A stretch of DNA of 64,000 nt from Escherichia coli (lineage in GTDB: Bacteria; Pseudomonadota; Gammaproteobacteria; Enterobacterales; Enterobacteriaceae), in assembly GCF_041248615.1 (NCBI RefSeq), contig NZ_CP158426.1. One strand, written 5' to 3'. Position numbers and translations under genes: made by a program. Below are positions 53,268 to 56,789 of this stretch, piece by piece (positions within the stretch are counted from its first letter, which is position 1; each line of letters begins with the position of its first letter). Under the pieces are notes generated by a model that was not told where the DNA came from, ran no database searches, and was given only the letters and a program-made list of their open reading frames with translations.

Positions 53268-53939
53268 ATGCAGTACCCGATTAACGAGATGTTCCAGACC
53301 CTGCAAGGTGAGGGTTACTTTACCGGCGTCCCCGCCATTTTTATTCGTTTACAGGGATGCCCGGTTGGCTGTGCCTGGTGCGACACCAAACACACCTGGG
53401 AAAAGCTTGAGGATCGGGAAGTCTCCCTTTTCAGCATTCTGGCGAAGACCAAAGAGAGTGATAAGTGGGGGGCGGCGAGCAGTGAAGACTTGCTGGCTGT
53501 CATTGGTCGCCAGGGATACACCGCGCGGCATGTGGTGATTACGGGTGGTGAGCCTTGCATTCATGATTTGCTGCCACTGACTGACCTGCTCGAAAAGAAC
53601 GGTTTTAGCTGCCAGATCGAAACCAGTGGTACTCATGAGGTACGCTGCACACCGAATACCTGGGTTACCGTATCGCCAAAGCTGAACATGCGCGGCGGCT
53701 ATGAAGTGTTGTCACAGGCACTGGAGCGAGCCAACGAAATCAAGCATCCAGTGGGACGCGTGCGTGATATTGAAGCACTGGATGAACTACTGGCAACACT
53801 GACCGATGATAAACCGCGAGTCATTGCGCTGCAGCCGATTAGCCAAAAGGAAGATGCTACTCGTTTATGTATCGATACGTGCATTGCGCGCAACTGGCGT
53901 TTGTCGATGCAAACACATAAATATTTAAATATTGCCTGA
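53268..53939 (+). CDS. queE: 7-carboxy-7-deazaguanine synthase (radical SAM)
   Basis: 223 aa with CPVGCAWCDT cysteine motif. Confidence 0.9.
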   Translation: MQYPINEMFQTLQGEGYFTGVPAIFIRLQGCPVGCAWCDTKHTWEKLEDREVSLFSILAKTKESDKWGAASSEDLLAVIGRQGYTARHVVITGGEPCIHDLLPLTDLLEKNGFSCQIETSGTHEVRCTPNTWVTVSPKLNMRGGYEVLSQALERANEIKHPVGRVRDIEALDELLATLTDDKPRVIALQPISQKEDATRLCIDTCIARNWRLSMQTHKYLNIA

Positions 53940-54129
53940 TTAAACATTTATAAGCGTTATAAATGGGTGGAACCTGTAAAGACTTCTACTCATTTATATT
54001 CTTTGTCGCCTCTAAAAAACCTCCATTTTGCCCATCCTGGACTAATCATTATCATTTTCTACAAATTCTGTGGCGTTAATTTTTCGTTGGAGTGAAAATT
54101 ATTACGTCGGAGTTTGGTGGATTTTAGTC

Positions 54130-54277
54130 GGTATAGAATTACTTTAAATATTTGGCTTTTCAATCAATGAATTAAGTGCTCTTTAACATAATGGATGTGT
54201 TGTTTGTGTGTTTCTGTTAAGTTGGTAGATTGTGACTGACTTAAAAAATCAATAATTAATAATAGGTTATGTTTAGT
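54130..54277 (+). promoter_or_regulatory. Putative CRISPR leader (AT-rich) abutting repeat 1
   Basis: AT-rich tract immediately 5' of the first repeat on the repeat-sense strand; no promoter elements were verified. Confidence 0.5.
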
Positions 54278-54672
54278 GAGTTCCCCGCGCCAGCGGGGAT
54301 AAACCGGCTGATGCGGTTCTATCACCACCACAAATTATGAGTTCCCCGCGCCAGCGGGGATAAACCGCAAATACGCGCGAGTGGCTAACCTGGAATCATG
54401 AGTTCCCCGCGCCAGCGGGGATAAACCGGCGCGGACGATAATCAGGGGCAGGCAGGGCACGAGTTCCCCGCGCCAGCGGGGATAAACCGGAAATCCAATA
54501 TTAACGTGGTGTTTTCAAAACGAGTTCCCCGCGCCAGCGGGGATAAACCGCGTTTAGCTCCGCAATGCTGGATATCACTGATGAGTTCCCCGCGTCAGCG
54601 GGGATAAACCGTATGGGAAACAGTAGCAACGGGCACACTGGCGGAGTTCCCCGCGCCAGCGGGGATAAACCA
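54278..54672 (+). CRISPR. Type I-E CRISPR array, 7 repeats and 6 spacers, no cas genes in window
   Basis: 29-bp repeat GAGTTCCCCGCGCCAGCGGGGATAAACCG at 54278, 54339, 54400, 54461, 54522, 54583 and 54644 with 32-bp spacers. Repeat 6 has C13T; the last repeat ends ...CCA instead of ...CCG. Corresponds to the ygcE-ygcF array of E. coli (established knowledge). Confidence 0.95.
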
Positions 54673-55126
54673 CCATATAACCCGTAATCTCTTTCTAAAG
54701 TTTTTATATTAGCAGTACTCGTAATAAGCAACATATCCACGTAACACCTCATGTTCAAAATAGCTCTCCATATATGAGAAGTTCACAATTATCGATACAA
54801 AAAATCAAATTTAATTAAAGTGTTAGTTGTATAATACTTAAATCATTAAGAAATTATCATATATTATTTTTTTAATATTGAATTGATGTTTGTTAGTTTT
54901 TTCTTTAGGATAATAGATTGTTTTTTAAGCTTATTATTCATTGATTAAGTAATAAATCTGGAAATTTGTCTTTGTTTTGAGGCTAATGAGTGGTTTTACA
55001 TAACCGTCTCTATAGACTGTTGATGAATAGTTCTTATGAATAAAGATATCCAGTTCATACTTTAAATGAAAATTGATAAAGTACGGTTTGCGTTGTCTTT
55101 TATTCTAAGGACATCGAGTGTAGTTA

Positions 55127-55265
55127 ATATTCCTTGTAACAACAGGGATAAACCGAACTAGTTAAAGTTTTTATTATGTTCCCTGCATCAGCGGGGATAA
55201 ACCGGACTTGTTATCATTTTTTAAGTTGTCGAACTTATGTTCCCCACGTCAGCGGGGATAACCAT
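55127..55265 (+). CRISPR. Degenerate CRISPR remnant: 3 decayed type I-E repeats with one intact-length 32-bp spacer
   Basis: atgttccctgcatcagcggggataaaccg (55176-55204) and atgttccccacgtcagcggggataacc (55237-55265) flank a 32-bp spacer; a further eroded repeat ...cagggataaaccg ends at 55155. Confidence 0.75.
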
Positions 55266-55310
55266 TCAGGTATGTTCAGGCCGGGCAGTTTCCCGCCCGG
55301 CCTTCCTCAC

Positions 55311-56789
55311 TTACGCATTCGACCAGCTCTGGATCGAATCCGCATTCCCCAATTCACCATGCATCACTTCATACGATTTTTTCAGGATCACATCAGTGTG
55401 CTTGGTTAGGTCTTTGAAAATGCCTTTATTCATCGCGTCGTAGCGTTTGGCGTTGCTCTCAACAGGCATAAAGATATCTTTCACGCGAACCATTTTGTCG
55501 ACAGCCGTTGCGTAATCCGGGTATAGCCCCAGACCTACCGCCGTATTAATCGCTGCCCCCAGACTTGCACAACCATTAATGGCGTTACGGCGTGCCGGAA
55601 GGTTGAACACGTCGGCAAAAATCTGCATAAACAGATCGCTGTTCGAACCGCCGCCAGTAATGATCACATGCTTTGCAAAGTGATTCATTTCATTACACAT
55701 ATTGTCGTAATTGTTCTTCAGCGTCAGCGCCACGCTTTCCAGTATCGAACGATATATCCATGCGTAATCCATGCTGGAATCAAAGCCGATCATAATCCCG
55801 CGTTTGTACGGTTCCCACGGATTGGTCAGCCAGTCCAGCACCGTCATCAGACCATTACAGCCAGGCGGCACACAAGACGCTTTTTTGTTGAGTAAATCTT
55901 CCGGTGAAAGATCCTGTGCTTTGGCATCCTGAATTAACGACTCGCCTAACATGTCGCGCAGCCAGCTCACTGTCCACATGCCTTTGCGGATACCGTAACC
56001 TTCATACAGCAATGTTTGCGGAATAGAAGACATAATCGGCCAGTACGCTACCGGATCTTTCGGCAGTGCTTTGCCGTTCATCATCAACGCGATGTAAGTG
56101 CCAAGAGAAATTACCGCAGTTTCATCATCCAGTAACCCGGCTCCCAGTGCTTCTACCGGTTTATCACTGGTGGTACAAACAACCGGCAGCCCAGCCGGGA
56201 AATGTGTCGCCAGCGCGGCTTGACGAGTGATATGCCCAAGAACAGTGCCCGGCATTTGCACATCAAACAGCATATGACGGGGGATATTAAACTTCTCCAT
56301 GACTGCGGCATCTTCACTCCATGCCCAGGTCTTATAATCCACCGGCCACTGACCAAAATAGTTGGCGATATTGTCTTTAAACTCGCCGGTTAAGCGATGC
56401 GTCAGATAACCCGAAAAAGAGGTGACATATGCCACGTCAGGATTCGTATGTTCGTAAGGGCGTGTAACGCGTGCATCCTGCCAGCTAATCAACGGCGCAG
56501 CTGGCGTGCCATCGGCTTTCAATAACGCACGGCAGCAACGGATGGATCCCAGACCAATACCGACAATATCTTCTTTATTTCCGGCAAACTGACTCATCAA
56601 ATCGTGACCGGCAAAGCATAATGATGCCCATAAATCGTCGTCAGGATGTTCTGCGGTATCGGCATCTGGCGTGTGCATCGGCTGCAATAAGCCTTTGCCT
56701 TCGCAAACCACATTACCTTCCAGATCGTACATCACCACTTTTGTGCTCTGACTTCCACCATCAATCCCTATGATGTATTTTTTCGACAT
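55311..56789 (-). CDS. ygcE: FGGY-family carbohydrate kinase, substrate unknown
   Basis: 492 aa. Confidence 0.85.
   Translation of the reverse strand: MSKKYIIGIDGGSQSTKVVMYDLEGNVVCEGKGLLQPMHTPDADTAEHPDDDLWASLCFAGHDLMSQFAGNKEDIVGIGLGSIRCCRALLKADGTPAAPLISWQDARVTRPYEHTNPDVAYVTSFSGYLTHRLTGEFKDNIANYFGQWPVDYKTWAWSEDAAVMEKFNIPRHMLFDVQMPGTVLGHITRQAALATHFPAGLPVVCTTSDKPVEALGAGLLDDETAVISLGTYIALMMNGKALPKDPVAYWPIMSSIPQTLLYEGYGIRKGMWTVSWLRDMLGESLIQDAKAQDLSPEDLLNKKASCVPPGCNGLMTVLDWLTNPWEPYKRGIMIGFDSSMDYAWIYRSILESVALTLKNNYDNMCNEMNHFAKHVIITGGGSNSDLFMQIFADVFNLPARRNAINGCASLGAAINTAVGLGLYPDYATAVDKMVRVKDIFMPVESNAKRYDAMNKGIFKDLTKHTDVILKKSYEVMHGELGNADSIQSWSNA

Follow-up and report, generated by a model that had tools for sequence, protein, structure and literature searches.

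Very probably, the T at position 13 of repeat 6 in the CRISPR2.3 array of the window (the whole 64,000-nt stretch of Escherichia coli DNA that was analysed) is a neutral C→T change that arose in place at a recurrently variable loop site, and its sharing with the degenerate repeats of the neighbouring fossil array, CRISPR2.2, is the coincidence of a common allele. The history we propose would begin with a single C→T transition in the unpaired tetraloop of an old, trailer-proximal repeat, which would then have been passed down with the two oldest spacers in one strain group. Within this repeat family the same loop change has arisen or gone to fixation repeatedly, and it fills the CRISPR2.1 array of the same genome. 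Repeats with T or C at position 13 are referred to below as T13 and C13, and other variants likewise.

The stretch is 100% identical to the record of E. coli NRZ14408 (NZ_LT599825.1), and the locus is the well-described E. coli CRISPR-II. The CRISPR2.x nomenclature used here is reportedly that of Díez-Villaseñor et al. 2010. The order of elements is queE, leader, CRISPR2.3, a gap of ∼0.5 kb, the fossil CRISPR2.2 and ygcE, with the following features:

53937–53939: stop codon of queE, which precedes the leader
53940–54277, + strand: leader of CRISPR2.3, AT-rich, from the queE stop codon to the first repeat
54278–54672, + strand: CRISPR2.3, seven 29-nt repeats alternating with six 32-nt spacers
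54551–54643, + strand: anchor module, consisting of spacer 5 (CGTTTAGC…), repeat 6 and spacer 6 (TATGGGAAAC…)
54583–54611, + strand: repeat 6, GAGTTCCCCGCGTCAGCGGGGATAAACCG, with C→T at position 13 (54595), loop GCCA→GTCA
54673–55126, + strand: inter-array stretch, 454 nt, AT-rich, GC 0.26
55127–55155, + strand: CRISPR2.2 repeat 1, the most decayed, ATATTCCTTGTAACAACAGGGATAAACCG, A at position 13
55176–55204, + strand: CRISPR2.2 repeat 2, ATGTTCCCTGCATCAGCGGGGATAAACCG, ATCA loop, T13 at 55188
55237–55265, + strand: CRISPR2.2 repeat 3, ATGTTCCCCACGTCAGCGGGGATAACCAT, GTCA loop, T13 at 55249
55311–56789, − strand: ygcE (FGGY-family carbohydrate kinase), from the annotation of the identical record NZ_LT599825.1

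The array at 54278–54672 has the 61-nt period and six different 32-nt spacers of a type I-E array, and RefSeq annotates it as CRISPR in NZ_LT599825.1. The repeat core matched the window nine times at up to two mismatches, where 0.01 matches were expected, and the CRISPR repeats are thus far beyond chance. Six of the seven CRISPR2.3 repeats read GAGTTCCCCGCGCCAGCGGGGATAAACC(G/A) with a GCCA loop, and the last of the array, repeat 7, ends in A (…AAACCA). The preliminary description had reported a change of the repeat 6 loop from GCCA to GTCA, and we confirm it: the T at 54595 is the second base of the tetraloop, and the rest of the repeat is perfect. A sequencing error was rejected as the source of this T, as it is present in five independent assemblies.

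The leader has a GC content of 0.31 as against 0.51 for the whole window, queE is annotated directly upstream of it in the identical record and in relatives, and leader 2.3 has been described before (PMC3903273, PMC3737337). The window resembles the published E. coli CRISPR-II (PMC3903273, PMC3737337, PMC4489801) in its position between queE (ygcF) and ygcE, its AT-rich leader, its 29-nt type-2 repeats and 32-nt spacers, a terminal repeat ending in A, and a 0.5-kb gap followed by three decayed repeats with two invariable spacers. It differs only in spacer content and in the T of repeat 6, both strain-group markers, while the structure is the same. The flanking gene that defines CRISPR-II, ygcE, has its stop codon at 55311–55313. 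K-12 has the same layout as the window, including a conserved 454-nt inter-array stretch; its CRISPR2.3 spacers are entirely different and none of its CRISPR2.3 repeats is T13. Outside the window, ∼17 to 26 kb downstream in NZ_LT599825.1, cas3, casA, casB, cas7e, cas5e, cas6e, cas1e and cas2e are annotated as intact. The CRISPR2.1 array of NRZ14408 lies ∼25 kb from the array of the window (L002, 26376–27014) and adjoins the intact type I-E cas operon.

Several searches of the locus gave negative results. Comparison of leader 2.3 with the inter-array stretch by BLAST revealed no significant similarity, and the idea that this stretch is a decayed copy of the leader was rejected, the best E-value being only 0.07. 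Promoter and terminator scans of the locus returned matches no commoner than in shuffled sequence, and an Rfam scan of 53800–55500 gave only a chance-level match (sX8, 20 bits against a gathering score of 50). For the six spacers (54307–54643), megablast found no near-exact protospacer match in phage and plasmid collections; the matches to the array in these collections comprised repeats only, in chromosomal records that had been mis-filed there.

CRISPR2.2 consists of three degenerate type-2 repeats (55127, 55176 and 55237), ∼0.5 kb downstream of CRISPR2.3, in agreement with its published description as three repeats and two invariable spacers (PMC4489801). The preliminary description had counted two degenerate repeats and placed the T in both. 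The T stands at 55188 and 55249 as described, but the repeats are three, and the one at 55127–55155 carries A13. The CRISPR2.2 spacer GACTTGTTATCATTTTTTAAGTTGTCGAACTT is identical in K-12 and five other strains, and repeat 2 does not vary among the E. coli loci fetched, K-12 included. In K-12, repeats 1 and 2 of CRISPR2.2 and the complete spacer between its last two repeats are identical to those of the window or one base off, and its third repeat differs from that of the window by one base. Both of the better-preserved CRISPR2.2 repeats of K-12 are T13, and the T of CRISPR2.2 is fixed in every E. coli locus examined. Degenerate terminal 'anchor' repeats of CRISPR arrays have been discussed before (Almendros et al. 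2014, PMC3903273), and the CRISPR2.2 repeats and the A-ending repeat 7, which are conserved in every E. coli locus fetched, resemble them as decayed trailer-end units. Repeat 6 is unlike these anchor repeats, as it has one loop change in an otherwise perfect repeat.

The distribution of spacers among strains dates the T of repeat 6 relative to its neighbours. All four other strains examined that share spacer 5 (L009–L012) carry T13 in repeat 6, and three of them retain spacer 6. The leader-proximal spacers are wholly different among these strains and the strain of the window. As the T is shared despite differing newer spacers, it predates the divergence of these strains and was passed down as part of the anchor module. 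The older repeat 7 is C13 and is identical in the E. coli CRISPR2.3 arrays fetched (K-12, GF54 and L009–L011), with the exception of an ETEC hybrid, indicating that the T of repeat 6 is derived and arose in place rather than being a relic. In swine ETEC and O139:H1 strains, spacer 6 is absent and the array ends in a hybrid terminal repeat with both T13 and the terminal A, which reads as the footprint of recombination between repeats 6 and 7. This hybrid was observed in E. coli O139:H1 P15-25 (L012, 1533–1561) and in ∼22 swine ETEC genomes.

To count T13 repeats within E. coli, we used a 30-nt megablast query that needed an exact 28-nt word, so that only T-carrying repeats were reported; repeats in the fetched loci were located by a Hamming-distance scan. 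The exact T13 repeat with a GAG 5′ end was present in 230 of 5426 complete E. coli genomes (971 copies, median 4 and maximum 35 per genome) and the exact T13 repeat with a GTG 5′ end in 1476 of 5426 (3243 copies), although clonal descent confounds such counts, as in the case of the stem variant T17 described below. In CRISPR2.1 of NRZ14408, T13 is found in 11/11 repeats, all of the GTG type. The single T13 variant of the window is hence the standard repeat of CRISPR2.1 in the same genome. In five loci of other strains (L003, L004, L005, L008 and L044), between 3 and 33 consecutive T13 units lie at the leader end, and their spacers are unique. In type I-E adaptation, new repeats are copied from the leader-proximal repeat, and these runs therefore show that T13 repeats acted as templates in many spacer acquisitions. 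T13 runs adjoin cas operons of both cas6e classes (651 bp and 600 bp), and co-adaptation of T13 with one cas-E variant was rejected on this ground.

Published tables also list T13 repeats from E. coli, Serratia and Salmonella. In one paper the repeat consensus of E. coli is given as CGGTTTATCCCCGCTGACGCGGGGAACWC, the reverse complement of which is the T13 form (PMC3737337). T13 has further been given as a repeat type with a folding energy equal to that of the GCCA form (PMC12299204), and as the trailer-end repeat of Salmonella Enteritidis CRISPR1 (PMC9576496). Repeat 6 is exactly the T13 enterobacterial type I-E repeat GWGTTCCCCGCGTCAGCGGGGATAAACCG with W = A; this repeat makes up whole arrays elsewhere, whereas in CRISPR2.3 of the window it is a lone copy among C13 repeats.

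In addition to runs, T13 occurs as isolated repeats, defined as those with C13 repeats on both flanks and unrelated spacers around them; E. coli offers at least eight such contexts. Those in CRISPR2.1 include one event common to two strains (L007 and L041), two separate sites in L037, and further occurrences in L039 and L040; in CRISPR2.3, an isolated T13 repeat was found in another strain with unrelated spacers (L038). In E. coli LR-46 (L040, 2367–2395), the terminal CRISPR2.1 repeat GTGTTCCCCGCATCAGCGGGGATAAACCG also has an ATCA loop, as does the CRISPR2.2 repeat at 55176 of the window, and the double loop change thus recurs as well. The same CRISPR2.1 array also holds a G13 variant. In a divergent Escherichia (L019, ∼88% identical), T13 is present in two leader-proximal CRISPR2.3 repeats. 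Moreover, CRISPR-I arrays from E. coli, E. albertii, Escherichia sp. and Salmonella close with a T13 repeat.

When one genome per species was scanned, the exact T13 core turned up at 24 loci in ∼20 other Enterobacterales species, including members of Citrobacter, Enterobacter, Erwinia, Pectobacterium, Pantoea, Leminorella, Atlantibacter, Serratia, Samsonia and Raoultella, in addition to Salmonella diarizonae. In these species T13 is mostly a single copy amid GCCA repeats, with few runs or whole arrays; arrays composed wholly of T13 are found in NRZ14408, Citrobacter sedlakii and Serratia inhibens. Across species, the isolated T13 events have a mean relative array position of 0.80 (P = 2 × 10−5 compared with uniform placement), and this bias towards the old end fits in-place mutation that builds up in older repeats. 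Most isolated T13 repeats elsewhere have a C13 neighbour on the trailer side. We also observed an enterobacterial-type I-E array with T13 in 20/30 repeats on a 4.5-kb contig labelled as a Bacillota MAG (L034, JAEWTL010000035.1); the Bacillota label is probably a binning error.

The repeat has the palindromic core of type I-E, predicted to fold into a 7-bp stem with a tetraloop, and the predicted fold of the T13 RNA is that of the consensus, at −15.1 kcal/mol for both. The preliminary description had supposed that a loop change should spare the stem and may be tolerated. This view holds, as fold and energy are predicted to be unchanged and long T13 runs adjoin intact cas operons. Recognition by Cas6e is directed at the stem and its base and not at the loop, and together with the natural T13 arrays this suggests that T13 would be neutral for processing and adaptation. 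The hairpin does not need the loop base, which is presumably also unread by Cas6e and the Cas1–Cas2 integrase, so that its change would be effectively neutral. The natural arrays thus point, if indirectly, to acceptance of a GUCA loop by the integrase and by both Cas6e variants of E. coli. No direct Cas6e assay of loop mutants was found in the literature searched; in vitro, Cascade loading and target binding have been reported to proceed without most of the 3′ hairpin handle (PMC4288178).

To see where this repeat family varies, variant events were scored against each array's own consensus in 20 arrays with 489 repeats. Position 13 had 23 variant events, a number that is inflated since the loci were gathered with a T13-specific pattern; the unbiased parts of the cross-species spectrum are position 14 and the surplus T13 events only. 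Position 14, which was not selected for, had eight variant events, six of them C→T, and the counts at individual stem positions ranged from 0 to 3. No other internal position in this repeat family varies as much as position 13, and a shared T is thus not improbable. Within E. coli, the loop variant T14 (with a GAG 5′ end) reached 129 copies in 40 genomes, at most 12 in any one of them. For the stem variants T9, T11 and T17, present in 3, 31 and 366 genomes, respectively, every genome had a single copy. Loop variants thus form runs (up to 35 copies for T13 and up to 12 for T14), whereas stem variants were never propagated. The stem variant T17 (GAGTTCCCCGCGCCAGTGGGGATAAACCG), a G·U wobble with exactly one copy in each of its 366 genomes, probably goes back to one old event that spread with a successful clone.

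Loop cytosines may deaminate faster, as they would be unpaired when the palindrome folds in single-stranded DNA, and such deamination would explain the C→T excess at positions 13 and 14 and G→A at position 12. It is possible, if rather doubtful, that the loop cytosines of I-E repeats (13, 14 and the C opposite G12) are true mutational hot spots, deaminated when the palindrome folds during transcription or replication. If so, identical variants would recur and accumulate with repeat age, might mislead CRISPR typing and array phylogenies, and the T of repeat 6 would be one instance of that process.

An alternative to mutation in place is that the ancestral repeat 6 received its T from a T13 repeat of CRISPR2.1, through short-patch gene conversion or ectopic recombination. 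Donors would be at hand, as CRISPR2.1 is T13-rich in three of four carriers (NRZ14408, 11/11; strain 135, 13/15; AF39, 35/39), recombination among E. coli CRISPR arrays is documented (PMC3903273), and the swine ETEC strains show one such event, between repeats 6 and 7. However, O139:H1 carries the T13 repeat 6, yet has T13 only in the terminal repeat of its CRISPR2.1. The CRISPR2.1 repeats of NRZ14408 and strain 135 are moreover of the GTG type whereas repeat 6 has GAG, so that any conversion tract would have covered fewer than 11 nt on that side, sparing position 2 as well as both spacers. With the site demonstrably variable, a point mutation accounts for the T more simply, and we consider conversion unlikely.

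Repeat 6 might instead survive from an ancestral array of T13 type, in which case the upstream C13 repeats would be a later type that followed a change of the leader-proximal repeat. T13 repeats do cluster at the old ends of arrays, and they terminate the CRISPR-I arrays of E. coli, E. albertii, Escherichia sp. and Salmonella. Nonetheless, the still older terminal repeat 7 is C13 and, the ETEC hybrid aside, identical in the fetched E. coli CRISPR2.3 arrays, and isolated T13 repeats elsewhere are mostly flanked by C13 on the trailer side, as fits mutation in place, which makes a relic very improbable.

The preliminary description had taken the shared T to mean that CRISPR2.3 and the degenerate repeats exchanged repeats or descend from a common variant repeat. 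It had also named T13 being common and independently recurrent across unrelated arrays as what would speak against a specific relationship, and this is what the comparison across E. coli arrays revealed, with T13 in the 230 and 1476 of 5426 genomes given above. Specific kinship would call for a shared base that is rare elsewhere and for other derived bases in common. T13 is not rare, and repeat 6 shares no second derived base with the CRISPR2.2 repeats, from which it differs at positions 1 and 2 and elsewhere. Repeat 6 has a GAG 5′ end and lies between C13 repeats, whereas the T13 repeats of CRISPR2.2 have the ATG 5′ end, and ATG-T13 is also the terminal repeat of the E. albertii CRISPR-I array. 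The T of repeat 6 and the T of CRISPR2.2 thus differ in age, strain distribution and sequence background. Although all three T13 repeats lie within 700 nt, an exchange or a private common ancestor of repeat 6 and CRISPR2.2 is scarcely credible, given that T13 is common and recurrent, that the CRISPR2.2 T is present even in K-12, whose CRISPR2.3 is without T13, that the T of repeat 6 is confined to a strain group with one spacer module, that repeat 6 is farther from the CRISPR2.2 repeats, by 1 to 2 differences, than are the GTG-T13 and ATG-T13 types, and that the remaining CRISPR2.2 repeat (55127) has A13 and the intervening repeat 7 has C13.

The locus, the fossil array and the T13 form of the repeat are already known from the literature, and the T of repeat 6 is an ordinary polymorphism of small biological weight that appears neutral. 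Because the site varies recurrently, one loop base shared between CRISPR repeats says little about how their arrays are related and is unfit for use alone. The real historical signal lies in spacer content and in repeat signatures that span several sites, such as the GAG, GTG or ATG 5′ end.

The fossil array itself has several further peculiarities. CRISPR2.2 repeat 1 keeps a 7-bp hairpin through double changes (C9→T with G18→A and C11→T with G16→A), with a predicted energy of −7.9 kcal/mol. Only 20 nt separate it from the next repeat, and 55127–55172 is 76% identical to 55176–55221, the 'spacer' included, suggesting that repeats 1 and 2 may be an old tandem duplication of a repeat–spacer unit and not two acquisitions. 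The interval that separates CRISPR2.2 from the ygcE stop codon contains a GC-rich inverted repeat (55278–55303, AGGCCGGGC … GCCCGGCCT, 8-nt loop), which the terminator scan did not call because it is without a T run. In CRISPR2.2 repeat 3, G→A at 55246 (repeat position 10) breaks one stem pair; K-12 and strain GF54 have G at this position, and the A is specific to the strain group of the window. In strain 135 (L010, 2185–2213), the last CRISPR2.2 repeat also has C14→T, giving a GTTA loop. The fossil CRISPR2.2 is still decaying, at rates that differ between strains.
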